From Candidatus Gottesmanbacteria bacterium (lineage in GTDB: Bacteria > Patescibacteriota > Microgenomatia > 2-02-FULL-39-11): DNA of 64,000 nt. The position numbers and the translations under genes were made by a program. Positions 8,621 through 37,519 of this stretch are shown here, in pieces (the stretch's first letter is position 1; every line of letters starts with the position of its first letter). The DNA is taken from positions 716,943 to 780,942 of the forward strand of contig JACPKY010000002.1 in NCBI GenBank assembly GCA_016186795.1, given 5' to 3'. Under the pieces are notes generated by a model, which ran no database searches, had not been told where the DNA came from, and worked only from the letters and a program-made list of their open reading frames with translations.

Positions 8621-8966
8621 ACGCTTTTTAATAGGATTTATTTTCGGTAGTATTTTTGCGCTATTTTTTATTCTCTTTTTCGGATCAAAAAATGGACGCA
8701 GCCTTCTTGAGAAGCTTCTTGATGATGAAGAAGCGTTCGAAAAATCTTTGAGAGGAAAACTTTTGGAATTTCGTAACTTTGGTAATAGACGTATCCTTCC
8801 TTCCGATCATATCCAATCTCCTCTTAACGATCTTTCGAAGAACGACAGTGCATTTATGAAGAATCTATCTGCTGATTTTCCCCAGTCCAAGGAGGAAAAA
8901 CGGCTCTCGTTTACAAAATCAATGAAACATTTTTTTAAGAAAAACGGGAAAATCCTCACTTCCTAG
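8601..8966 (+). CDS. YtxH-like small membrane protein
   Basis: RFLIGFIFGSIFALFFILFFGSKNGRSLLEKLLDDEE resembles the YtxH-family N-terminus (GfllG...APksG). Confidence 0.4.
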   Translation: MEIDQSKRFLIGFIFGSIFALFFILFFGSKNGRSLLEKLLDDEEAFEKSLRGKLLEFRNFGNRRILPSDHIQSPLNDLSKNDSAFMKNLSADFPQSKEEKRLSFTKSMKHFFKKNGKILTS

Positions 8967-9456
8967 GAAGTCTCGTTTGGAGTTCTACAATCGATTCATC
9001 CATAACTCTCAATATCTCCTGAATGATTGATTCAGCCTCAGAGAAAGAAAGTGCTCGGAAGTTATGAGGGAAATAATGGAATACGAGATTTCTCCCCTGT
9101 TTCCAAATCGACCACATGCGATCGGCCAGAATTCTGTCGCCTGTTGCTTCAACAACCTTGTCATAAATAGATTCCCATCGAAGATGTTTTTCTAAGTGTG
9201 GGTTTAAAGCTCTCCCAATTCTGAAGTGATCACCACCATACTGTTCCTTCGTAATAAAAGAACAATCAAGAAATAACTGTTTTAGAAATCCTTCATATGC
9301 CTTGGCAAATGGAAAAACAACGTAGGAATAATCGGATATTTCTAACCGAGGATGTTCAGTTATGTCGTGAAGGAGAAATAATCCTTCCTTTATCAATCCC
9401 TTTTGATTCGGAGAAAGGTATTCCCAAATACGTGCGTTTTCATCTATCTCAACCAT
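8956..9456 (-). CDS. Hypothetical protein; possible HEPN-fold (RNxxxH) domain
   Basis: 166 aa, all-alpha in character, with a C-terminal ...WSIWKQGRNLVFHYF... giving an R-N-x3-H motif reminiscent of HEPN/Abi2-type RNases. No partner gene is recognised. Confidence 0.3.
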   Translation of the reverse strand: MVEIDENARIWEYLSPNQKGLIKEGLFLLHDITEHPRLEISDYSYVVFPFAKAYEGFLKQLFLDCSFITKEQYGGDHFRIGRALNPHLEKHLRWESIYDKVVEATGDRILADRMWSIWKQGRNLVFHYFPHNFRALSFSEAESIIQEILRVMDESIVELQTRLPRK

Positions 9457-14722: not shown

Positions 14723-16576
14723 ATGACCCATAAAGAAGTTAGAAAAAAATTTATCTCGTTTTATAAAGGAAAAAGACATGTAGAAATCCCATCGGCTTCC
14801 CTTGTTCCCGAAAATGACCCTACTACCCTCTTTACGAGTTCAGGCATGCAACCTCTTGTACCCTACCTTCTTGGGGAAAAACATCCTTCAGGTACACGTA
14901 TTGTTAATAGTCAAAAATGTTTCCGTGCACAAGACATAGATGAAGTGGGCGATAACAGGCATACAACATTTTTTGAAATGCTCGGCAATTGGTCACTTGG
15001 AGACTATTTTAAGGAAAATCAACTCCCTTGGTTTTTTGAATTTTTAACGGATGAATTACATCTTGATCCGAAGAGACTATATATAAGTGTTTTTGAGGGA
15101 AATGAATTTGTCCCAAAGGATAATGAATCCATTAAGATTTGGAAAGAACTCTTCTCCCAGGTTGGAATTGAGGCAAAAGAAGGAGAAAGAATTTTTTCGT
15201 ATGGTGTAGATAAAAACTGGTGGTCCCGCTCAGGTACACCAGACAAAATGCCTCCGGGTGAACCAGGAGGTCCTGACAGTGAGGTATTTTATGACTTTGG
15301 AATTGAGAGAAAATTCCATGAAAATTCTCCATGGAAAAATAAGCCTTGTCATCCAAACTGTGAATGTGGCCGGTTCTTAGAGATTGGAAATTCTGTATTT
15401 ATGGAATACCAAAAACAACAGAACGGAAGTTTTAAAGAATTACCGCAAAAAAATGTAGATTTTGGTGGAGGACTTGAGAGATTAGTTGCTGCAACGAATG
15501 ATAATCCTGATATGTTTCAAATAGATTTGTTTTCAACCGCAATTAAGACTTTGGAAGCTATTACCAAGACGCCTTCAAATTACAAAATACATCCGCGTCC
15601 TTACAGAATAATCTCTGATCATTTAAGAGCTGCAATTTTTTTGGTTGATAGCGGAGTAGAGCCTTCAAACAAGCTGCATGGATACGTTTTAAGACGCTTA
15701 ATAAGACGGGCAATGATCCAAGCAAGAGAATTAGGTATGATGGGTGATGAATGGCTTTCAAATGCAATCCCTGAGTTTATTTCCCAGTATTCTCAAATAT
15801 ACCCATCTGTTACGAAAAATACACCAGAAATCAATCAAGTCATTACTGCAGAAGTAGATAAATTCAGAAAAACTATAGATCGGGGCTTAAGAGAATTTGA
15901 AAAACTAAAAGATAACCAGCTTACTGGATCAACTGCATTTAATTTATACCAAAGTTATGGATTCCCTTTAGAAATTATAAAAGAGCTATATTTACAAAAA
16001 GGAGTGACTCTGAATGAACTAGAATTTAGCGAAGCGCAAAAAACTCATGCTAATCTATCAAGAAAAGTTACAAGTAGACTTTTTAAAGGAGGACTGGTTG
16101 ATCAAAGCGAAGCTGTCGTAAAACTTCATACGGCAACACATCTGCTACAACAAGCATTAAGAGAAGTATTAGGTAGTCACGTACGGCAAAAAGGCAGCAA
16201 TATTACAGCAGAACGTCTCCGTTTCGACTTCACTCATCCGGAAAAAATCTCAAATGAAACTATTGAAAAAATCGAACATCTCGTCAATAAAAAAATTGAT
16301 AAAAACCTGACAGTGTCGGTGGAAATCGTCCCGCTTAATAAGGCTATTGAAGAAGGAGCCCTAACCGTTCCGGGCACAACATACCCTGAACAGGTAAAAG
16401 TCTACTCTATTGGGAACTTCTCAAAAGAGGTCTGTGGAGGACCTCATGTTGACTTTACAGCTACCATAGGTTCGTTTAAGATAGTAAAAGAAGAGGGAAT
16501 TTCCCAAGGTGTAAGACGCATATACGCCAAAGTATCTTCTGATCATGTCAATACTAGGAAAAATCATGCCCAGTAG
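14723..16576 (+). CDS. alaS: Alanyl-tRNA synthetase (catalytic and editing domains; C-terminal C-Ala domain absent)
   Basis: N-terminal FISFYKGKRHVEIPSASLVP...FTSSGMQP...GNWSLGDYFK, and the editing-domain Zn motifs HTATHLL (HxxxH) and CGGPHV (CxxxH). At 617 aa it is well short of the ~875 aa full-length enzyme. Confidence 0.9.
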   Translation: MTHKEVRKKFISFYKGKRHVEIPSASLVPENDPTTLFTSSGMQPLVPYLLGEKHPSGTRIVNSQKCFRAQDIDEVGDNRHTTFFEMLGNWSLGDYFKENQLPWFFEFLTDELHLDPKRLYISVFEGNEFVPKDNESIKIWKELFSQVGIEAKEGERIFSYGVDKNWWSRSGTPDKMPPGEPGGPDSEVFYDFGIERKFHENSPWKNKPCHPNCECGRFLEIGNSVFMEYQKQQNGSFKELPQKNVDFGGGLERLVAATNDNPDMFQIDLFSTAIKTLEAITKTPSNYKIHPRPYRIISDHLRAAIFLVDSGVEPSNKLHGYVLRRLIRRAMIQARELGMMGDEWLSNAIPEFISQYSQIYPSVTKNTPEINQVITAEVDKFRKTIDRGLREFEKLKDNQLTGSTAFNLYQSYGFPLEIIKELYLQKGVTLNELEFSEAQKTHANLSRKVTSRLFKGGLVDQSEAVVKLHTATHLLQQALREVLGSHVRQKGSNITAERLRFDFTHPEKISNETIEKIEHLVNKKIDKNLTVSVEIVPLNKAIEEGALTVPGTTYPEQVKVYSIGNFSKEVCGGPHVDFTATIGSFKIVKEEGISQGVRRIYAKVSSDHVNTRKNHAQ

Positions 16577-18641
16577 TGAGTCGAAGGAGTACTTCCTTAT
16601 TCTTGGCATGGAAGAAAGGCGGATTACTGCAGCCGTTGCAAAGCTTTCTGGAAACGAAATTACAATTCTCGGAACAGGCGAGGGTGAATGGAATAAAGGA
16701 GATAATGCATCAGACGTTGCAGATATTGCTATTTCTGCTGCAGAAAAAAATCTAAAAGAGAGCGTCCTTCTTGAAAAAGTTATTTTTGGACTTCCCATAG
16801 ACTTTCTCGAAAATGATGCTATTAAACCGGAACATCTCGTAACGCTAAAAACAATTGCGAAGGAACTTGATTTAAAACCGAGTGGGTTTATTGAGTATCC
16901 TCAAGCATTTGCATACTACCTTGAATCAAAGGAAGGTTCTGCTCCAACACTTCTTCTCTTTTCAATAGGATCTACGGATATTACTGTCTCTCTTATCCGG
17001 GTTGGCAAATTAGAAAAAAATAGTACGCAACCTCGAAGCGAATCTTTCACTGACGATATAACCCGTATTGTCAATACTTTTAAGGATGAAATTCTTCCCT
17101 CTCGAATACTTATTTATGATCGGACACAAAAAGAGAATGTAGAAAATATTCGGGAGGAGCTATTACGATTCTCCTGGCATAAGTACTCATCATTTCTCCA
17201 TACCCCAAAAGTTGAGACACTCCCTGAAAATGTGGGAACTCTCGCTCTCGTTGAAGCAGCGGGAGGAAGTATCTTAAAATTGATGCAAGAGGAGATTGAG
17301 GAATCTCCTCCAAAAGATGAAAATTTCGGGTTTGTAAAGCATGCAGAAAAAAAGGGCACGTCGGAGAAAGAATTGGAAACTGAAATCGAGAAAAAAAGAG
17401 AGCCATTAAAATCTTTGCGAAATTTGCCTCTCCTTTCGAATCTTTTGGGAAACATCTCAAAAATTTCTCTCCCTAAACTGGCTCTCTTTGAATCTTTTTC
17501 AGGGAGAAAACTCTTTCTTATTATTCCATTCATTGTCCTTACTCTTTTTCTTGTTGCAATTGGAATGAGAATTTTTTTCTACTCCCCAAAAGCTGAAATT
17601 CATTTCATTACATACCCTATTTCGACATCAAAACGTATTGCGGTCCTGTTTACAACTGAATTGAATCGTTCTTCTGAATCAAACGTCATTATTGCAACTC
17701 CGATAAACGTTGAAACAAGTGGTGAAAAGGCTGTTGCAACAACCGGAAAATCAAAAATTGGAGAAGCCGCCAAAGGCGAAGTAACTATTTATAATAAAAC
17801 GCTTGCAGGAAAGACTTTTCCAAAAGGAATAATTCTCACAACCGACTCTCTACAGTTTAGCCTTGATCAAGATGTAAACGTCGCCTCTGCATCGGATACC
17901 GGAGAAGGACTTACATTTGGCAAAATAACATCGAAAATTACCGCGCGTGAGATTGGCCCGGAGGGAAATATACCGGCTGGTCGGAATTTTACATTCAAAG
18001 ATTTTCCTGAATCACAATATTATGCAAAAAATGTGGAAAAACTAACTGGTGGCACAAGCCGTGAAGTCTCAAGTGTGTCAAAAAATGATCAAGATGGACT
18101 CCTTACAGCTCTTTCTAACGAACTTATACAAAAGGCGAGACAGGAAATTACTGGTAAAATTCACCAAGATGAAAAGATACTTGATGCTTCAATGAAAGAA
18201 ACCGTTAAGAACAAAAATTACAACAAAGATGTTGGTGCTGAAGCAAAAGAATTAACTCTTCAGGGAACACTGGAACTTTCCGCACTTGTTTACAAAAACT
18301 CTGATATAACAATACTCTCGAGTACAAATCGATCGGAAATCCCATCAGGGTATACACTTGATACTCTACGAACTACTGTCCGAATTGGTGACGTAACGAT
18401 TGATAAAAAAGGTGATTATACAGGAGAAGCCTCGATTACTTCCTATTTCATCCCCTCGTTTGATATACCTTCACTCAAAGCGAAACTTGTTGGAAAATCT
18501 TACACGGATGTCAAGTCATTCCTTGCCTCTGTGGAAAACGTCGCTGGCTTTGAAATTGTTGCCTTTCAAACGCCACCGTTTTTTGGAAATAGACTCCCGC
18601 TCCGAAGAGATAACATCTCCATCTCTGTAGTCCCTCGATAA
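16545..18641 (+). CDS. Large bitopic membrane protein of unknown function (cytoplasmic N-terminal domain, one TM, about 350-aa extracytoplasmic domain)
   Basis: One TM (LFLIIPFIVLTLFLVAIGMRIFFY) at about residue 325 and an acidic linker. The N-terminal region weakly resembles the actin-like ATPase first motif (FLILGMEE...ITILGTGEG). The start may be the downstream Met at 16608, after the alaS stop. Confidence 0.35.
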   Translation: MSILGKIMPSSESKEYFLILGMEERRITAAVAKLSGNEITILGTGEGEWNKGDNASDVADIAISAAEKNLKESVLLEKVIFGLPIDFLENDAIKPEHLVTLKTIAKELDLKPSGFIEYPQAFAYYLESKEGSAPTLLLFSIGSTDITVSLIRVGKLEKNSTQPRSESFTDDITRIVNTFKDEILPSRILIYDRTQKENVENIREELLRFSWHKYSSFLHTPKVETLPENVGTLALVEAAGGSILKLMQEEIEESPPKDENFGFVKHAEKKGTSEKELETEIEKKREPLKSLRNLPLLSNLLGNISKISLPKLALFESFSGRKLFLIIPFIVLTLFLVAIGMRIFFYSPKAEIHFITYPISTSKRIAVLFTTELNRSSESNVIIATPINVETSGEKAVATTGKSKIGEAAKGEVTIYNKTLAGKTFPKGIILTTDSLQFSLDQDVNVASASDTGEGLTFGKITSKITAREIGPEGNIPAGRNFTFKDFPESQYYAKNVEKLTGGTSREVSSVSKNDQDGLLTALSNELIQKARQEITGKIHQDEKILDASMKETVKNKNYNKDVGAEAKELTLQGTLELSALVYKNSDITILSSTNRSEIPSGYTLDTLRTTVRIGDVTIDKKGDYTGEASITSYFIPSFDIPSLKAKLVGKSYTDVKSFLASVENVAGFEIVAFQTPPFFGNRLPLRRDNISISVVPR

Positions 18642-18642
18642 T

Positions 18643-19353
18643 ATGGCACTGTATAGTTATAGAAAACAGTCAAGAAGAAGACTTCGGAAAGTCATTCGCA
18701 CTGTCTCTTTTGTTTTTATTCTTTCAGGACTTGGTATTCTTTTGTGGGTTCTTTCTCCGATTATTTTTTTTGAACTTGTCTATGCACCAAGATTTACTGG
18801 ATTACTGCGCCCAATTCCAGAAACCATTATAGAGGATACACTCGCGTCCACTCTCCCAATTATACTTCCAAGCGAGCGAATTGACTATACGAAAGCACGG
18901 GTTTGGTTTCCAAAAGCAACGAATATTTCCCTCCCCCAAACACCAACTGTCTATACTCTTTCAATTCCAAAAGTTGATATTTTTGACGCATCTGTCACCG
19001 TTGGTGGTGATGATCTCATGAAGAGCCTGATTCATTTTGCTGGACCTCTCCCTGGACAAAATGGAAACCCAGTCATATTGGGCCATTCAACGCTCCTATG
19101 GTTCTACAATCCTCGTGATTATAAATCTATATTTTCAAAACTCCCATCACTCAAGATTGGAGATACAATACAGGCCCGCGTTGATTCAATCACATATACT
19201 TTTAAGGTGTATGAAATGAGTATTGTTTACCCTGATGATCTTTCTGTGCTTCGCCAACAGAACGACAATTCGTATATTACCCTAGTAACATGCGTACCAC
19301 CGGGTACATACTTAAAACGACTTGTCGTTCGAGGAAGGCTTGAAAAAATATGA
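18643..19353 (+). CDS. Sortase-family transpeptidase
   Basis: N-terminal TM anchor, a His region PVILGHSTL, the catalytic TLVTCVPPG (TLxTC) motif, and a downstream Arg (RLVVRGRL). Confidence 0.7.
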   Translation: MALYSYRKQSRRRLRKVIRTVSFVFILSGLGILLWVLSPIIFFELVYAPRFTGLLRPIPETIIEDTLASTLPIILPSERIDYTKARVWFPKATNISLPQTPTVYTLSIPKVDIFDASVTVGGDDLMKSLIHFAGPLPGQNGNPVILGHSTLLWFYNPRDYKSIFSKLPSLKIGDTIQARVDSITYTFKVYEMSIVYPDDLSVLRQQNDNSYITLVTCVPPGTYLKRLVVRGRLEKI

Positions 19354-21674: not shown

Positions 21675-22085
21675 ATGAAGAAAGCTGACCTCATTGCCAA
21701 TCTTCGAAATGATGTATATTGCCGGATGAAACCATCCCCAATACATGGAGTTGGTGTTTTTGCAATCCGAACTATTCCGAAAGGAATAAATATCTTTAAG
21801 GGATCACAGGAGAGCTTTTATGATTTTACAAAAAAAGAGCTCCAAAAAATATCTAAACCGGTTCAAAAGCTCATCTATGATTTTTGCTGCATCGAGAAGG
21901 GAAAAGTGTTTATACCCAAAGCGGGATTGAATAGTATTGACATATCATTTTTTGTCAATCATTCAAACAAACCGAATGTGAGATTTGATGAGGAACAAGG
22001 CTCATTTATCACGTTAAGAAAAATCAGTTCAAACGAAGAACTTGTTGTCGATTACTCCGATTTTGAAAAAAATGTTCAAACCTAA
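21675..22085 (+). CDS. SET-domain protein (putative protein-lysine methyltransferase)
   Basis: [13 protein letters not shown]..., then [10 protein letters not shown] (a variant of the NHSCxPN SAM-binding motif), and [10 protein letters not shown] (the ELxxDY post-SET tyrosine motif). 136 aa. Confidence 0.6.
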
Positions 22086-26355: not shown

Positions 26356-28284
26356 ATGGAAAAGATGAAACATGCAGTCTTTCTCATCATCTGCATAGTT
26401 GCTCTGCTCGGACTCCTTTCAACACAGGAAAAAGTTCGACAATTTCTTTCAATAGCAGCACCCACTCCAGCAAATATTACAATTGATGTACAAAATAGTA
26501 AACAGCCTCTCTTTCTCCCGTGGCTAAATTTTGCACAGGGAGGTGAAGAACCTACTCAGATGCTTTCTCCAGCCATTTCAGCTATGCAGCAACTGCGTCC
26601 CCAATACGTACGAATTGACCATATCTATGATTATTATGTTCAAATGGCGAAAGGAAATGATGGCTATTCATATGATTTCACCCAACTTGATAAAACAGTT
26701 GATGATATACTGACGATGGGCGCGCTCCCTTTTTTCAGCCTTTCATACATGCCAAAGATTTTCACTGAAAACGAATCAGTCATTGATCAACCTTCTAATT
26801 GGCAAGATTGGTCGAATCTTGTACAAAAAACCATCGAACACTATAGTGGAAAGAAGTTCAAAAACCTTACTCATGTATACTATGAGTTGTGGAATGAACC
26901 GGAACTTCCACAATTTGGATCATGGAAACTCTCCTCTCCAAAAGATTACCGCATGCTCTATTACTACACTTCCATTGGTGCACAGAATGCGCAAAACGTC
27001 AATGAATTTTCACTCGGCGGCCCGTCAGTTGGATCCTACTACCCTTCCTGGGTTTCTGATTTTGTGGCGTTTGTGGAACAAAATAACCTTCGACTCGACT
27101 TTTACTCTTGGCATAGATACGGTACAAATCCAGAAATATTTGTGAACGACGCCAAAAATATTCGGTCTAAACTAGCACGGTTTCCCACGTATAAAGATAT
27201 CCCACTCATTCTTTCTGAATGGGGATTAGACTCTGACAATACTGATCGGAATAATTCCGATGCTGCGGGAGCATTTACAATAGCAGCTGCGAGGAATTTC
27301 ATAAATCGAATTGAGAAAGCATTTGCGTTTGAAATTAAAGACGGTCCTCCCCCTAATGGTGGAAAATGGGGACTTCTTACCCATGAGAGAACAACAACAC
27401 CTCTTTCACGAAAACCGCGATACAAGGCATTTCAAACCTTAACGAAACTTTCGGGAGAACTCCTTCCACTTTCTGGGGAAGGAACATTCGTATCGGCAAT
27501 AGGAACAGTCGAAAACAACGCATATAAAGTTATTATCAGTAATTATGACCTTGCAGGAAAAAATGCTGAAAATGTACCAGTCACGTTTTCGCGTCTTGCC
27601 CCGGGACAATACACCCTCACCTACACGTATCCTCTTTCTGAAATTACTGGTCAGTATGACGATACAACAACAACTGGTGTACTATCTCACTTGTTTCCAC
27701 TTCAACCGAACTCCCTCTTATTTCTTCAATTGACTCCGGTATCACAATTTGCAGACCGCTCTCAAGGCGCAAGTGGTACATCAGATGATTTTTCGCTCCC
27801 TCTCACTCATCTTGAAACTTCGCTTATCTTCACAACACCAACCTTTTATCTCACTTCCCAAGGAAGTGTTGAATTTGACCTTCAGGTTTTATGGGATGAT
27901 AACAATGGAGCATTTTATATATTTGAAATCCCCTACACAGATTCAGGAGGATCTATTAGAAAACTATCACTTGTTAAACAAACAACGGGAAAAAATCACT
28001 TCCTTACTCTTTTAACTGAAGAGGGAACCAGTCAAAAAATTACACATCGAATTGATTCGTGGGAGAAAAATTCCTGGCATCATATAACTGTTAAATGGGA
28101 TAGCAAAGATATATCCCTTGAAGTTGATGGGAAAAACGCTCTAGAATTTCCCCTTCGTCTTACAATCAATGAAGGCAAAACACTTACTTTTCCAGCCTCT
28201 CCAATAGCTATTGATAACCTTATTATCCGAATGAATGGGAAAATTCTTATAGAACGACACTTCAACAGAGATATAGACTCATAG
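26356..28284 (+). CDS. Secreted clan GH-A glycoside hydrolase (GH39/GH5-like) with C-terminal LamG/ConA-like domain
   Basis: Signal peptide MEKMKHAVFLIICIVALLGLLS. Acid/base motif YYELWNEPE and nucleophile region LILSEWG. The C-terminal 200 aa are beta-rich (HITVKWDSKDISLEVDGKN...), consistent with a lectin-like domain. Confidence 0.5.
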   Translation: MEKMKHAVFLIICIVALLGLLSTQEKVRQFLSIAAPTPANITIDVQNSKQPLFLPWLNFAQGGEEPTQMLSPAISAMQQLRPQYVRIDHIYDYYVQMAKGNDGYSYDFTQLDKTVDDILTMGALPFFSLSYMPKIFTENESVIDQPSNWQDWSNLVQKTIEHYSGKKFKNLTHVYYELWNEPELPQFGSWKLSSPKDYRMLYYYTSIGAQNAQNVNEFSLGGPSVGSYYPSWVSDFVAFVEQNNLRLDFYSWHRYGTNPEIFVNDAKNIRSKLARFPTYKDIPLILSEWGLDSDNTDRNNSDAAGAFTIAAARNFINRIEKAFAFEIKDGPPPNGGKWGLLTHERTTTPLSRKPRYKAFQTLTKLSGELLPLSGEGTFVSAIGTVENNAYKVIISNYDLAGKNAENVPVTFSRLAPGQYTLTYTYPLSEITGQYDDTTTTGVLSHLFPLQPNSLLFLQLTPVSQFADRSQGASGTSDDFSLPLTHLETSLIFTTPTFYLTSQGSVEFDLQVLWDDNNGAFYIFEIPYTDSGGSIRKLSLVKQTTGKNHFLTLLTEEGTSQKITHRIDSWEKNSWHHITVKWDSKDISLEVDGKNALEFPLRLTINEGKTLTFPASPIAIDNLIIRMNGKILIERHFNRDIDS

Positions 28285-29962: not shown

Positions 29963-29969
29963 ACAACAC

Positions 29970-30263
29970 ATGCCAATTACAGAAGGCGCCAAGAAAAAGC
30001 TACGACAGGACAAGAAAAGAACCGAGAGGAATTTACGGAGTAAAAATACATTAAAACAAGCGATAAAAAAACTGAAAAAAACTCCTTCGCAAAAAAATCT
30101 CTCTCTTGTATTTCGCCTCCTTGATATTTCAGGAAAAAAGAATATGTTTCACAAGAATAAAATCAAGAGGTTGAAATCAAAATTCTCCCAAATTTCGAAA
30201 ATGAAAAGCAGTAAAAAACAAGAATCAGTGACAAAAAAGGGGCAAAACAGAGCAAAAAAATAG
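29970..30263 (+). CDS. rpsT: 30S ribosomal protein bS20 with Lys-rich C-terminal extension
   Basis: MPITEGAKKKLRQDKKRTERNLRSKNTLKQAIKKL is the bS20 N-terminal helix pattern. The ORF-track start at 29901 is a TTG and represents an upstream extension. Confidence 0.75.
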   Translation: MPITEGAKKKLRQDKKRTERNLRSKNTLKQAIKKLKKTPSQKNLSLVFRLLDISGKKNMFHKNKIKRLKSKFSQISKMKSSKKQESVTKKGQNRAKK

Positions 30264-30332: not shown

Positions 30333-30890
30333 ATGCCTGCCCGCCATAAGCCTGTCAATATCAACCTTATCATAAAAGATGAACTTGGAGAGTCTTTTTC
30401 TGGACAACTTCTTAAATGGGCACTCACCTATGGAAGATATACTATTATCATTACGCAGATCATTGTCCTCTCTGTTTTTTTCCTCCGGTTTAAATTAGAT
30501 AGAGATCACACAGATCTAAAAGAATCGGTTGCCCAAAAACAGGCGATTGTTGAATCTGTCACAGACCTCGAGGTAGAAATTCGAAGGGTTCAAGACCGTC
30601 TCGCAAATATCAAGAAGTTGTCTCAAAATCAGGAAGTCCCATTGAATGTCATCCTTTTTTTCCAGGATCAATCACCGTCAGATACTCTCTTTGATTCTTT
30701 CAATCTCAATGGGAATAAACTGGCATTTTCTGCATCAGTTGCAAACCTTCGCAGTTTTTCATTTTTTATGAATGTACTGCAAGAAAATAAAAGCTTTTCT
30801 GAGGTAACGCTCAGCGAAATAAGTAGACGTCCAAATGGAAGAGTCGAATTTAAAATCGATACAAAAATTAATCCCATTCAATTCCAATGA
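30333..30890 (+). CDS. PilN-like type IV pilus inner-membrane component
   Basis: N-terminal KPVNINLIIKDE (similar to the INLLP PilM-binding motif), one TM, and a coiled-coil plus alpha/beta periplasmic domain. It overlaps the next gene by 4 nt. Confidence 0.45.
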   Translation: MPARHKPVNINLIIKDELGESFSGQLLKWALTYGRYTIIITQIIVLSVFFLRFKLDRDHTDLKESVAQKQAIVESVTDLEVEIRRVQDRLANIKKLSQNQEVPLNVILFFQDQSPSDTLFDSFNLNGNKLAFSASVANLRSFSFFMNVLQENKSFSEVTLSEISRRPNGRVEFKIDTKINPIQFQ

Positions 30891-31498
30891 AACAGTTAAA
30901 CTTCCATCAACCGCTCTTACGAAATACATACAAACGATTTTCTCCTCTTATAACCAATAGAAAAACCGCCTCTTATCTTACTCTGACACTTACTCTCCTA
31001 TCGCTTTCTTTCTTCGGAATATTTGCCGTTCGCCCAACACTTATAACAGCAGTATCCCTGTTTCGCAGCGTTTCAGATTTAAAACAGTTAAATACTGAAT
31101 ACGAACAAAAAATCGGAGATATCATTCGAGCCCAAGCTGAGTATGAAAAAATTCTGAATGATATACCTGTGATAAATGGATCTCTTCCACAAAATCCTGC
31201 ATTCAGTCAAGTTGCTGGAAATATTGAAAAATTTGCTTCTCGTGAAGGATTTACTATCACCCAACTCCAAATCGACAATGTTCCCATATCGACACCTTCA
31301 AGTACGAATCGTATCTCTGAATTTGGGTTCCGAGTAATTGGTACGGGTGACTATCAAACGGTAATGGCTTTTTTTTCTCACCTCTTAAACTGGAGGCGAA
31401 TTGTTTCCATAAACTCATTTGATATGACTCCTGAAGGAAGTACAAATAGTGGGACCTTAAGACTCTCACTACGAGCGCTCACATACTATGAACCATAA
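30887..31498 (+). CDS. PilO-like type IV pilus inner-membrane component
   Basis: N-terminal TM (LTLTLTLLSLSFFGIFAV), a coiled coil, and a ferredoxin-like domain. The gene order is that of pilN then pilO. Confidence 0.4.
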   Translation: MKQLNFHQPLLRNTYKRFSPLITNRKTASYLTLTLTLLSLSFFGIFAVRPTLITAVSLFRSVSDLKQLNTEYEQKIGDIIRAQAEYEKILNDIPVINGSLPQNPAFSQVAGNIEKFASREGFTITQLQIDNVPISTPSSTNRISEFGFRVIGTGDYQTVMAFFSHLLNWRRIVSINSFDMTPEGSTNSGTLRLSLRALTYYEP

Positions 31499-31676
31499 AG
31501 AATTTGCAATTCTTGCCATTATTCTTTTTCTCTCCGTTTTTGCGTGGATTTTCTTTGGAATTTATCACGCACGAACCACCTCGACTGTTTCTCAAAAAGA
31601 ACTCCACCAGGTAGTTCCGTTGACACCTAAATTCGACAATGACATAATCAATGTACTCAGAGGCAGGGAGGAGTAG
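31488..31676 (+). CDS. Small single-pass membrane protein (62 aa) in the pilN/pilO-like cluster
   Basis: TM FAILAIILFLSVFAWIFFGIY. It is translationally coupled on both sides. Confidence 0.25.
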   Translation: MNHKEFAILAIILFLSVFAWIFFGIYHARTTSTVSQKELHQVVPLTPKFDNDIINVLRGREE

Positions 31677-33035
31677 ATGTATCGAAAGGAAAGAAAATTA
31701 CCAACGCTTATTGCCCTCTTTTTACTCTGTCTTGGATTTGGTGGGATTATCTATCTTGACAAACAGATTCCCCAAACGATCACCTCTGCAAAATCGGCTA
31801 TCCTTCCTCAAGAAATTCACTTTACGAATATCTCGGATTCATCACTGACGGTATCGTGGGTAACTGAGAAAGCGGAAAAGGGAAGTGCACAAATAAAAGT
31901 CGGAGAGAAAACGTTTACTTATTTTGACGTTAGTGATGTCGATAACATATCACGTGCGCGTACAACCCACTATATTACGTTCAAAAGTCTTAATGAGAGT
32001 ACTCCCTATACGGTAAAAATTATAAGTGGCGACCCACGGTGTGATCCAAAAGAGGTATGTCCTTCATTTGAAAAAAGTACAGCGAAAAAAATTACTCCTT
32101 CTACCAATCTTTCTCCTGTCCGCGGCACGATCGTTACTCCAGATAATCAACCAGTGGATGGATCTATTGTCTATCTCGTCATTGGGCAAAGCCTCCCTCT
32201 TTCTGGAAGAACAGATACTTCCGGACTCTGGGTAATATCTTTACAAAATCTACTCATGACAAATACTGAAACGCGATTAGAACCAAAAGACACCGACCCT
32301 GTTGAAATAACGGCAATTCTGACACCAGAGAAAAAAACTACACTCACAACTACCTTTAAAGCGATCCGGGAAAACGGCATCATTCCAGTCATGATGATTG
32401 GAAGATCGTATAATTTCCCCAATTCTCTTGGCTTAGAAGAGGGAAATTCTTCCACCAATACAACACTTGGAGCATCTGATGAGAAACTACCACAACCATC
32501 CGGAAATGGGAATATTCAACTCTACTTCCCCGTAAAAGAGAGTGAAACAACAACCGATACAAACCCTCGTTTCCGAGGAACTGGACTGAAAGGTACCCAA
32601 CTTCTTATCACCGTCAACTCTACCCCACAGACGGCTAAAATTACTGTTGGAAACGACGGTACATGGTCATGGAGACCTCCAAAATCACTCCCACCTGGAG
32701 AACATTATATTAGTGTCGAAGGGTACGATGAACGTGGAAAACTCATTTCTGTAAAACGGAAGTTTATTGTATTAAAAAGTGGCGAAAGCGTCTTAGGAGA
32801 AGCAACCTCTTCGGCAACTCTTACCCCCTCACCTATCCCTACTGATAGTCCTACTCCAACACCAACAATCTTTACTACCCCATCCCCATCTCTTTCCCTC
32901 ACCCCAACTCAAACACTTACTCCAACAGCACTTCCGAAAGTAGAACCCCCTCCCACAGGAAGTTGGCAGTATTTAGGAATTTTATTAGTACTTGGGACGA
33001 CACTTACAGCTTTTGGGGTTCTCTTACTACTCTAA
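31677..33035 (+). CDS. Cell-surface protein with Fn3-like and Ig-like (Big) domains, a Pro/Thr-rich stalk and a C-terminal hydrophobic anchor
   Basis: Signal/TM LPTLIALFLLCLGFGGIIYL. Fn3-like SDSSLTVSWVTEKAEKG...TPYTVKI. Ig-like ...GTQLLITVNSTPQTAKITVGNDGTWSWRPPKSLPPGEHYISVEGYD. A PT-rich linker TPSPIPTDSPTPTPTIFTTPSPSLSLTPTQTLTPT. The C-terminus is ...PPTGSWQYLGILLVLGTTLTAFGVLLLL. Confidence 0.5.
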   Translation: MYRKERKLPTLIALFLLCLGFGGIIYLDKQIPQTITSAKSAILPQEIHFTNISDSSLTVSWVTEKAEKGSAQIKVGEKTFTYFDVSDVDNISRARTTHYITFKSLNESTPYTVKIISGDPRCDPKEVCPSFEKSTAKKITPSTNLSPVRGTIVTPDNQPVDGSIVYLVIGQSLPLSGRTDTSGLWVISLQNLLMTNTETRLEPKDTDPVEITAILTPEKKTTLTTTFKAIRENGIIPVMMIGRSYNFPNSLGLEEGNSSTNTTLGASDEKLPQPSGNGNIQLYFPVKESETTTDTNPRFRGTGLKGTQLLITVNSTPQTAKITVGNDGTWSWRPPKSLPPGEHYISVEGYDERGKLISVKRKFIVLKSGESVLGEATSSATLTPSPIPTDSPTPTPTIFTTPSPSLSLTPTQTLTPTALPKVEPPPTGSWQYLGILLVLGTTLTAFGVLLLL

Positions 33036-35651: not shown

Positions 35652-36674
35652 ATGCAAATCTTAGAAGTTTCTGCATCATACCAGAAATCATTTAATAAAC
35701 TCGCTACTCATCCTCTTCAATCCTGGGAGTGGGGCGAGTTCCGGCAAAAAACTGGAGTACGCGTTGTTCGGCTTGGTAAGTTCAATAATGGTGCGCTTTC
35801 TGAGGTTCTCCAGATGACAATCCATCAATTACCTGGAGGATTTACTATCGGGTACGTTCCAAAATCACACATCCCCAGTCAAGCATTGTTTCAGGAGCTT
35901 TATAAAGTTGCAAAATCCAATTCATGTATATTCATTAAATTTGAACCGAATGTGATCGAAAATCCAAAACAAATACATCTCTTAGGAGAGCTTAAACTTA
36001 TTCAATCACCTCATCCGCTATTTACCAAATACACATTTCAATTAGATTTAGAACAGTCGGAAGAAACACTTCTTAAAAACATGCATCCGAAAACACGATA
36101 TAACATCAAAGTGGCACAAAAAAATGGTGTTGTAGTAAAGGAGGAAACATCAACTCGTGCCTTCCAAGCATATTTGGATCTAACATTCGCCACTTCAAAG
36201 CGGCAGGGGTTTTTTGCCCACAACCGAGATTATCATGGCAAAATGTGGGATACTCTCCGACCTTCAGGAATTGCACACTTATTGTGTGCAGAATATGAAG
36301 CTTTGGGACAGTCAAAAATTCTTACCGCCTGGATTCTTTTCCTCTTCCACAATATATTGTACTACCCGTACGGCGCATCAAGTTCTGAATATCGAAATGT
36401 TATGGCATCAAATCTTATGATGTGGGAAGCAATCCACTTTGGGAAAAAACAGGGAGCAAAGCTTTTCGATCTCTGGGGATCACTCGGTCCAAATCCAGAC
36501 TCCAGTGATCCTTGGTATGGATTCCATCGTTTTAAACTTGGCTATAGCCCAAAGCTTATCACATTCGTTGGCAGCTTTGATGCAATAGTTAATCCATACG
36601 CGTATAGAGTGTATACCTCTATTTATTTTCTTCGAGAAAAACTCCTTACGTTGAAACGAGTTCTTACTCCATAA
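35652..36674 (+). CDS. FemAB-family peptidoglycan interpeptide-bridge aminoacyltransferase
   Basis: LQSWEWGEFRQKTG... at the N-terminus and a GNAT-like duplicated fold, typical of FemX/FemAB. Confidence 0.65.
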   Translation: MQILEVSASYQKSFNKLATHPLQSWEWGEFRQKTGVRVVRLGKFNNGALSEVLQMTIHQLPGGFTIGYVPKSHIPSQALFQELYKVAKSNSCIFIKFEPNVIENPKQIHLLGELKLIQSPHPLFTKYTFQLDLEQSEETLLKNMHPKTRYNIKVAQKNGVVVKEETSTRAFQAYLDLTFATSKRQGFFAHNRDYHGKMWDTLRPSGIAHLLCAEYEALGQSKILTAWILFLFHNILYYPYGASSSEYRNVMASNLMMWEAIHFGKKQGAKLFDLWGSLGPNPDSSDPWYGFHRFKLGYSPKLITFVGSFDAIVNPYAYRVYTSIYFLREKLLTLKRVLTP

Positions 36675-36679
36675 TCTCC

Positions 36680-37519
36680 ATGAATGACATTCGTCAAACA
36701 TCACCGTTTGCCCAGTTTATGTCCGATCTCGGCTGGGATGTCGACTTTATTGAAAATCAGCATATATTTAGACGCCACTTTCCCTTCGTTGGGAATTTTG
36801 CCAAAATGCCACGGCCGAATTTTCCCCTGTCTATTTCAAAATTGAAAAAATATATGAAGAGTCAAAATGTTTTCCGTTTGAAGCTTTCACCTTTTCTACA
36901 GACTCGATCAAGAAAATACGTACAGGCAAAAAAATCATTATCCTCAAACGGATTTTCCATTGATGCAAACCCATTCAACCCAACAACTACCATTCAGATT
37001 AACTTAGAACGAGAAACTGAAAAAATCTTCCAGTCTTTTTCAGAAGCAAAACGGCGCGGTGTGCGCCGGGCTTTAAAACATGGAGTACAGATTTATGAAA
37101 CATCAGATATTTTCTCTTTCATTGCAATTCGGAAACATCAGTATAGACCGCTTGGATTTCTTATAACACGAGAAATGCAATGTCTGTGGGAGAATTTTTT
37201 CCCAGAAAAAGCAACGCTTCTCTTGGCATACACAAAAGAAAAACGAGCGATTGCTGGGATTCTGCTTCTTATATCAAACAAAACAGCATACTATTGGTAT
37301 GCATCTGCTCTCACTGAAGGGAAAAAGTTATTTGCACCAACTCTCCTTGTGTGGGAAGCATTGAAAGTCTCAAAGAGAAAACGCTGTTCTATTTTTGATT
37401 TTGAAGGTATTTACGATGAACGGTTTCCGAAAGCATCAAAATCCTTTAGGGGATTTACAAAATTCAAAGAGGGGTTTGGCGGGGAAAAGGTAATTTTTTC
37501 GGAAAACTTTACTATATAA
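36680..37519 (+). CDS. FemAB-like/GNAT-fold aminoacyltransferase paralog (shorter)
   Basis: Follows directly after the previous gene. The C-terminal ...FDFEGIYDE...FTKFKEGFGG resembles the FemAB C-lobe. The assignment is tentative. Confidence 0.4.
   Translation: MNDIRQTSPFAQFMSDLGWDVDFIENQHIFRRHFPFVGNFAKMPRPNFPLSISKLKKYMKSQNVFRLKLSPFLQTRSRKYVQAKKSLSSNGFSIDANPFNPTTTIQINLERETEKIFQSFSEAKRRGVRRALKHGVQIYETSDIFSFIAIRKHQYRPLGFLITREMQCLWENFFPEKATLLLAYTKEKRAIAGILLLISNKTAYYWYASALTEGKKLFAPTLLVWEALKVSKRKRCSIFDFEGIYDERFPKASKSFRGFTKFKEGFGGEKVIFSENFTI

Follow-up and report, generated by a model that had tools for sequence, protein, structure and literature searches.

Results

A coupled four-gene cluster downstream of rpsT

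We analysed a 64,000-nucleotide stretch of DNA (the window) from a Candidatus Gottesmanbacteria bacterium of the Microgenomates (assembly GCA_016186795.1, contig JACPKY010000002.1, forward-strand positions 716,943 to 780,942), and in particular a cluster of four genes, designated here p1 to p4, at positions 30333-33035 of the window. p1 (30333-30890, + strand) encodes a 185-amino-acid (aa) protein of the PilN family, p2 (30887-31498, +) a 203-aa protein of the PilO family, p3 (31488-31676, +) a small protein of 62 aa, and p4 (31677-33035, +) a 452-aa stalk protein with a candidate cell-wall sorting signal. Each start codon overlaps or abuts the preceding stop codon: the ATG of p2 overlaps the stop of p1 as ATGA, p3 overlaps p2 by 11 nucleotides (nt), and the ATG of p4 immediately follows the stop of p3. 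An earlier note on this DNA, made from the letters alone, had described four coupled open reading frames (ORFs) here, and its coordinates proved exact.

Upstream of p1 lies rpsT (ribosomal protein S20; 29967-30263, +; Pfam Ribosomal_S20p, 1.8e-8), which takes the place that pilM would have in a canonical pilMNO cluster; the absence of pilM from the locus had been recognized already in the earlier note. murJ lies upstream of rpsT on the opposite strand, and p4 is followed by tpiA, a UvrD-type helicase gene and two FemAB-family genes. A scan for promoters and terminators gave counts no different from those of shuffled sequence.

PilN and PilO homologues encoded by p1 and p2

Profile searches place p1 and p2 in the PilN and PilO families, and for p1 this assignment is firm at the family level. 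p1 scored 22.7 bits (E 1e-4) against the Pfam PilN model (PF05137), 0.1 bit short of the curated cutoff of 22.8; the same model matched 14 out of 16 p1 orthologues at E <= 1e-3, the best at 3.6e-11. When a profile of the p1 family was searched against the PDB, the sole significant match was the Myxococcus PilN (3jc8_Na, 6.8e-5), in a sequence alignment that spans the coiled coil and the C-terminal core of that structure. p2 matched Pfam PilO (PF04350) with 39.9 bits (cutoff 22, E 5.9e-10), its family profile retrieved the PilO structures 3jc8_Oa (3.5e-7), 2rjz (2.4e-6) and 5uvr (4.8e-6), and NCBI lists an identical protein as ‘type 4a pilus biogenesis protein PilO'. Hydropathy analysis revealed one hydrophobic segment in p1, at about residues 37-55, and p2 has a single predicted membrane-spanning segment. 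Comparison of the p1 and p2 profiles with each other gave a weak in-register match (probability 29%). A weak match of p2 to the VPDSG-CTERM model fell inside its membrane segment, and we regard it as spurious.

The N-terminus of p1, predicted to be cytoplasmic, reads VNINLI, which contains the INLI motif noticed earlier; I-N-L occupies residues 10-12. In the 16 p1 orthologues I10 is invariant and N11 and L12 are at least 90% conserved, and distant orthologues have the canonical form, INLLP. In Thermus and Pseudomonas the INLLP-type peptide at the N-terminus of PilN is the binding site for PilM. The invariance of INL(L/I) thus argues for a retained PilM-type partner.

p3 and p4 are predicted envelope proteins, p4 being a stalk protein

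p3 has one hydrophobic segment (residues 7-25), no lipobox, and a conserved C-terminal motif, PLTPxFDxDII...RE(E). It had no significant family match in Pfam or NCBIfam, and in distant lineages it is longer, at ~100-114 aa.

The architecture proposed for p4 in the earlier note (a signal anchor, Fn3-like and Big-like domains, a Pro/Thr-rich stalk and PPTG before a hydrophobic tail) agrees with the Pfam matches and the structure prediction. Pfam detected Big_13 (2.9e-9, residues 290-355), fn3 (2.6e-5) and CarboxypepD_reg (5.6e-4). In the AlphaFold2 (AF2) model, built with 118 sequences (mean predicted local distance difference test score, pLDDT, 83), the first element is a hydrophobic helix at residues 10-29, preceded in the sequence by a basic n-region; the helix would be a signal peptide or an anchor, and A38, which comes after it, is at least 90% conserved. 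Next come an Fn3-like domain (~45-134), a second beta-sandwich (148-246) and the Ig-like strands of Big_13 (290-365), with low confidence in the linker at 250-276 and in the Pro/Thr stalk of ~50 residues, from 374 to ~425. The model ends with a helix at 430-451, right after the PPTG of residues 425-428. Foldseek searches with the model yielded nothing more specific than tandem Fn3/Ig stalks of a generic kind (contactins, fibronectin, giant adhesins, SlaB) and gave no lead on function.

We also observed an acidic cluster followed by a His at residues ~84-98 of the Fn3-like domain, with the consensus DDxDxDN..RPR.TH. D84 is invariant and D87 at least 90% conserved in an alignment of 19 p4 sequences, and in an alignment of 118 sequences H98 is without exception. 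The cluster and the His may form a metal- or ligand-binding loop.

The module is conserved across Microgenomates

We gathered 95 related loci through exact-protein look-ups and from species-representative genomes and metagenomes, and searched the window and the first 91 of these loci for the module. The order murJ, rpsT-p1-p2-p3-p4 recurred in all the Microgenomates loci examined whose sequence was long enough to show it. p1 was found in 83 sequences, p2 in 73, p3 in 68 and p4 in 57; 75 sequences had rpsT immediately before p1, and 54 had a murJ homologue. Downstream of the module tpiA and femAB were common, with a FemAB homologue in 29 sequences, and the neighbours in other lineages included LCP (LytR_cpsA_psr) proteins, PMT-type glycosyltransferases and DUF2298 proteins. 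The arrangement held even in the most distant loci found, at 23-25% identity of PilO and 24% identity of p4. Of the 120 p4 homologues analysed, every one with a source name came from Microgenomates; the source names for the module cover Gottesman-, Woese-, Levy-, Roizman- and Shapirobacteria. p4 occurs as one copy per locus, with a constant length of ~430-500 aa and a constant domain order.

Four records titled ‘uncultured Gammaproteobacteria bacterium' (L014, L016, L019 and L025) carry a module of the Gottesmanbacteria type with the same synteny, and their p4 proteins are 39-44% identical to that of the window over the best segment. These titles are probably taxonomic mislabels.

The C-terminal motif of p4 is conserved and shared with unrelated proteins

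The putative sortase recognition motif of p4, P425-P426-T427-G428 (32949-32960, +), is followed by a hydrophobic tail of 24 residues without Lys or Arg, SWQYLGILLVLGTTLTAFGVLLLL (32961-33032, +). P425 is at least 90% conserved and G428 is invariant, both being among the most conserved columns of the protein. P-x-x-G lies 23-33 residues from the C-terminus in 114 of the 120 p4 homologues, and P-x-[S/T/A]-G in 110, so that the motif of the family can be written as [P/V/I/L]-P-x-[S/T/A]-G. The residue before the Gly is Ser in 58 of these 110 proteins, Thr in 46 and Ala in 6. The sorting signal suggested in the earlier note is consistent with this conservation; its specific form, xPPTG, is not, Ser being at least as common as Thr. 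A Thr is favoured five residues past the motif Gly (79 of 114), and distant homologues have PDSG or PDAG, reminiscent of VPDSG-CTERM signals.

The missing basic tail, to which the earlier note drew attention, holds for the window protein and not for the family. At least one Lys or Arg, mostly exactly one, is present in the final 10 residues of 103 homologues; the 17 that have none include the window protein and its closest relatives. The absence is a quirk of this group.

Other proteins were searched for the same signal in related Microgenomates loci and, within this genome, in the 64-kb window. In the window p4 was the sole ORF with xPx[TSA]G and a hydrophobic C-terminal tail. In ~1 Mb of related Microgenomates DNA a hidden Markov model (HMM) of the p4 tail found the same signal in four or more further families of proteins. 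The matches comprise a family of ~350 aa ending in IPVSG or IPTSG (loci L063:656-1813, L065:1786-2847, L073:5442-6500 and L085:5518-6561); a family of 178-220 aa with PK[V/I]PVAG (L063:9457-10011 and relatives); a family of 217-248 aa with PVAG, encoded directly after p4 in some Gottesmanbacteria (L013:11427-12080, L043:4743-5489 and L012:11481-12143); a Cys-rich protein of 355 aa with LPKAG (L007:12085-13152); and a 90-aa protein with PPISG (L005:20121-20393). Except for an Ig domain in the 350-aa family, they have no domain in common with p4. Common to all of them are a hydrophobic segment at the N-terminus and a linker rich in Pro and Thr, which leads into [L/I/P]-P-x-[S/T/A]-G and a hydrophobic tail; in most a Thr follows four or five residues past the Gly.

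We compared the frequency of the motif at the C-terminal segment with that elsewhere in the stalks. Among unique ORFs other than p4 that combine a Pro/Thr stalk with a C-terminal transmembrane (TM) segment, 10 out of 10 have the motif right before that segment, while P-x-[T/S/A]-G occurred twice in 3282 upstream stalk positions, an expectation of ~0.009 per protein. The earlier note had proposed to test for such an enrichment in this genome; in the related genomes it is seen. Given the near-invariance of the Pro and Gly in 120 homologues and the recurrence of the motif in unrelated proteins, the tail of p4 behaves, as far as sequence can tell, as a conserved and shared sorting signal rather than a plain anchor, and the other families that bear it may belong with p4 to one sorted surface proteome.

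A sortase that fits none of the class A-F models, and FemAB proteins

A membrane-anchored sortase of 236 aa is encoded at 18643-19353 (+). It matched Pfam Sortase (PF04203) at 4.1e-23, and the catalytic motifs can be read from its sequence: LGHS (H148), TLVTC (C217) and then an Arg (R230 or R232). It scored 58.6 against the generic NCBIfam model sortase_fam (cutoff 39.35) and fell below the cutoff of every class A-F model, in agreement with the earlier description of a sortase of unknown class. Méheust et al. found this family to be near-ubiquitous in Microgenomates and named no substrates for it (PMC6744442). Sortase B (SrtB) of Clostridioides difficile recognizes (S/P)PXTG, and PPKTG is cut between Thr and Gly (PMC4155245).

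The two FemAB-family genes (35652-36674 and 36680-37519, both +; Pfam FemAB, 7e-35 and 4.4e-17 for the pair) lie 2.6 kb downstream of p4. FemAB-family proteins of Gram-positive bacteria build the cross-bridge that is attacked by sortases. The FemAB pair of the window may build a peptidoglycan cross-bridge that serves as the acceptor for the sortase.

The sortase gene is preceded by a 698-aa ORF (16545-18641, +), whose stop at 18641 and the sortase start at 18643 indicate translational coupling; the gene order alaS-698aa-sortase persists among Microgenomates at identities as low as 28%. In its longest form this ORF has a 32-nt overlap with the end of alaS (16545-16576). The database copy has 691 aa, which makes the Met at residue 8 the probable true start. 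The AF2 model (mean pLDDT 88.6) has a cytoplasmic actin-like (ASKHA) domain at ~15-252, a low-confidence linker, a membrane helix at 320-346 and a large external beta domain, the latter matching Baseplate_J. Sequence searches with the N-terminal region gave no matches. We considered whether this protein might be the missing PilM. In Foldseek its ASKHA domain matched PPX/GppA, FtsA, PilM and EutJ about equally (~1e-7); the near-equal ranking indicates an ASKHA fold without singling out PilM, and we did not adopt that identification. The protein may be a partner of the sortase, or the actin-like partner implied by the INL motif of p1.

Other genes of the window

A 166-aa ORF on the minus strand (8956-9456) matched the RnaseLS-like HEPN domain (1.2e-6) and RnlA-toxin DBD (1.1e-4), and a similar gene occupies the equivalent place in L092; it may be the toxin of a toxin-antitoxin pair. 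The window further encodes a small SET-domain protein (21675-22085, +; 2e-9) and a GH39-family glycoside hydrolase (26356-28284, +), the latter with a weak, sub-threshold laminin-G-like match. The GH39 gene lies between hrcA and murJ in Gottesmanbacteria loci and is not found there in Woesebacteria-like loci.

Discussion

The explanation we favour, in which we place no more than even confidence, is that the module couples an orphan PilN/PilO scaffold to a stalk protein anchored by the sortase, and that it is the single-membrane counterpart of PilN-PilO-PilP(-PilQ) of the type IV pilus machine. By homology, p1 and p2 would form a heterodimer in the cytoplasmic membrane, each crossing it once. 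p4 would be exported through its N-terminal hydrophobic helix, and its tail, P-x-(S/T)-G plus a hydrophobic helix, would act as a variant cell-wall sorting signal. Cutting behind T427, the membrane sortase would then attach p4 to the cross-bridge of the peptidoglycan. That p1 to p4 work together, as a membrane-to-wall assembly, is suggested by their translational coupling and strict co-conservation; the ATPase, platform and PilM genes of the pilus machine would lie elsewhere in the genome.

Among the closest known systems is the type IVa pilus alignment subcomplex, PilM-PilN-PilO-PilP, of Pseudomonas, Myxococcus and Thermus. p1 and p2 are homologous to PilN and PilO and stand in the same order, and both, like PilN and PilO, have one hydrophobic segment close to the N-terminus; p1 retains the N-terminal INL(L/I), and two more envelope genes, p3 and p4, occupy the positions of pilP and pilQ. 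In contrast to the type IVa cluster, rpsT rather than pilM lies upstream of p1, pilus genes are not within 10 kb in the annotated loci, and p3 and p4 are not homologues of PilP or PilQ; p4 is predicted to be wall-anchored instead of being a lipoprotein or a secretin, and the organism is thought to lack an outer membrane (PMC6744442). PilN and PilO do occur without an outer membrane, in PilMNO of single-membrane bacteria and in loci 1 and 2 of TM7x of the Saccharibacteria, which also belong to the candidate phyla radiation (CPR).

The tail of p4 finds its nearest parallel in the (S/P)PXTG substrates of C. difficile SrtB, such as CD2831 (PPKTG). Both have a P-P-x-T-G type motif before a hydrophobic C-terminus, an N-terminal export signal, and a sortase in the genome. 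The p4 family differs in that Ser is as common as Thr before the Gly, and Ala also occurs; in that position -4 is P/V/I/L; in that the charged tail is down to one Lys or Arg or none; and in the conserved Thr ~five residues after the Gly. The sortase of the window, unlike SrtB, fits none of the class A-F models.

We also compared the locus with the Pam pilus system of CPR bacteria (Saccharimonadia and Microgenomatia), which likewise has beta-sandwich surface proteins with C-terminal hydrophobic helices, PamR consisting of two FnIII domains and a C-terminal TM helix. The Pam operon, however, has the chaperone-like PamC/D and donor-strand pilins, adjoins ATP synthase genes and has no PilN/PilO. 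Its described components and gene context set it apart, nothing comparable being present around the module, and we rejected it as the identity of this locus.

Several observations weigh against a link of the module to pili and to the sortase. Pfam scans of 48 of the larger ORFs of the window detected no pilM, pilB, pilC, pilT or pilD, and in the seven annotated loci the 10 kb around the module contain neither these genes nor a pilin gene. PilP (PF04351) was not matched by p3 or p4 at E <= 1; of the HMM checks proposed in the earlier note, that for PilO succeeded outright and that for PilN through the orthologues, whereas that for PilP found nothing. Unlike the pilMNO genes of Saccharibacteria, which sit inside pilus loci with pilB and pilC (PMC11623550), the pair here is orphaned and joined to the operon of a stalk protein. 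The neighbours of the module are housekeeping and cell-wall genes (murJ, tpiA, femAB, LCP and PMT-type glycosyltransferases), which fit a role in wall biogenesis equally well. The sortase gene is ~12 kb from the module and coupled to another conserved gene, that of the 698-aa protein; neither in the window nor in any of the 91 loci did the 10 kb around the module contain a sortase homologue. The C-terminus of the window p4, ...VEPPPTGSWQYLGILLVLGTTLTAFGVLLLL, has no Lys or Arg, and the NCBIfam LPXTG-anchor models did not match p4 at E <= 1.

The strongest rival, which we consider possible though on balance improbable, makes use of these neighbours. The PilN/PilO pair would have been repurposed as a scaffold for envelope or wall biogenesis or for division, without a pilus role, for example by positioning or tethering the machinery of wall synthesis or glycosylation, with p4 as a structural tether. 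The fixed place of the module between murJ and tpiA, with femAB near, is consistent with this, as are the LCP, PMT-type glycosyltransferase and DUF2298 genes near it in other lineages, its presence as one module per locus with core-gene-like conservation across the class, and the lack of nearby pilus genes in the seven annotated loci. The matches to the PilN and PilO families are nevertheless specific, the PilM-binding INL(L/I) motif is invariant, and housekeeping synteny in the small genomes of CPR bacteria is weak evidence of function. Less likely is that the tail of p4 is a mere membrane anchor, an option which the earlier note had left beside the sorting signal, or a signal for an exosortase, archaeosortase or rhombosortase, P-x-S/T-G being then a hinge or a modification site. 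The uncharged tail of the window protein, its failure to match the LPXTG-anchor models and the sortase being unlinked to the module in any locus would all agree with this; the PDSG/PDAG of distant homologues recalls VPDSG-CTERM, and C-terminal TM helices have been proposed to retain the CPR surface proteins PamC, PamD and PamR (bioRxiv 10.64898/2026.03.03.709456). However, the conserved Pro, Ser/Thr and Gly are the positions of a sortase motif, at the canonical distance from the C-terminus, and the motif is common to unrelated proteins that all have an N-terminal signal and a Pro/Thr stalk. Moreover, a sortase is near-ubiquitous in Microgenomates (PMC6744442), and (S/P)PXTG is a proven sortase motif (PMC4155245); no exosortase-type protein was present among the window ORFs scanned, and p4 matched neither the PEP-CTERM nor the VPDSG-CTERM models.

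The pilus-associated adhesin put forward in the earlier note, or a free-standing one, for attachment to host cells or surfaces, is distinctly unlikely, given the housekeeping-like conservation of p4. Tandem Fn3/Ig domains on a stalk are typical of adhesins, the Foldseek matches include adhesin stalks, and cultivated CPR bacteria attach to host cells (PMC11623550). Adhesins, though, are usually variable, multi-copy and patchily distributed, whereas p4 is found once per locus, constant in length and domain order, in a fixed housekeeping context, a syntenic block maintained throughout the class; nor does it have a recognisable binding domain beyond generic beta-sandwiches.

The orphan scaffold with its anchored stalk, which we prefer, can be extended to a bolder proposal that we regard as rather doubtful. 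The module would be a class-wide trans-envelope device, unrecognised so far, of single-membrane CPR bacteria, in which a PilN/PilO scaffold is covalently coupled to the wall via a sortase-anchored Ig/Fn3 stalk, and the unclassified sortase would read a code peculiar to the lineage, [P/V/I/L]-P-x-[S/T/A]-G. If the N-terminal helix of p4 stays uncleaved, one end of p4 would be held by the membrane and the opposite end by the wall. The device would be a functional counterpart of PilP/PilQ for passage of the pilus through the wall, or a membrane-to-wall tether independent of pili.

Annotations of PilO, of an Fn3-domain protein and of a sortase already exist individually. In the searchable literature we found no description of an orphan pilN-pilO-p3-p4 module, or of a sorting signal of Microgenomates or Patescibacteria.

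The CPR accounts for a large part of the diversity of bacteria. Its members cultivated to date live attached to other cells and most are uncultivated, so that what is known of their envelope machinery comes almost wholly from sequence. It is unsettled how, in a cell without an outer membrane and a secretin, a type IV pilus machine connects to, and crosses, the wall, and an operon of PilN/PilO with a predicted wall-anchored stalk protein is a concrete candidate for the connection between pilus and wall. The comparative data also supply a candidate recognition motif for the near-ubiquitous sortase of Microgenomates, which would make it possible to predict the surface proteome across the class. 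If the link to the pilus is wrong, the module would mean that scaffolds of the PilN/PilO type have been recruited for another envelope function.

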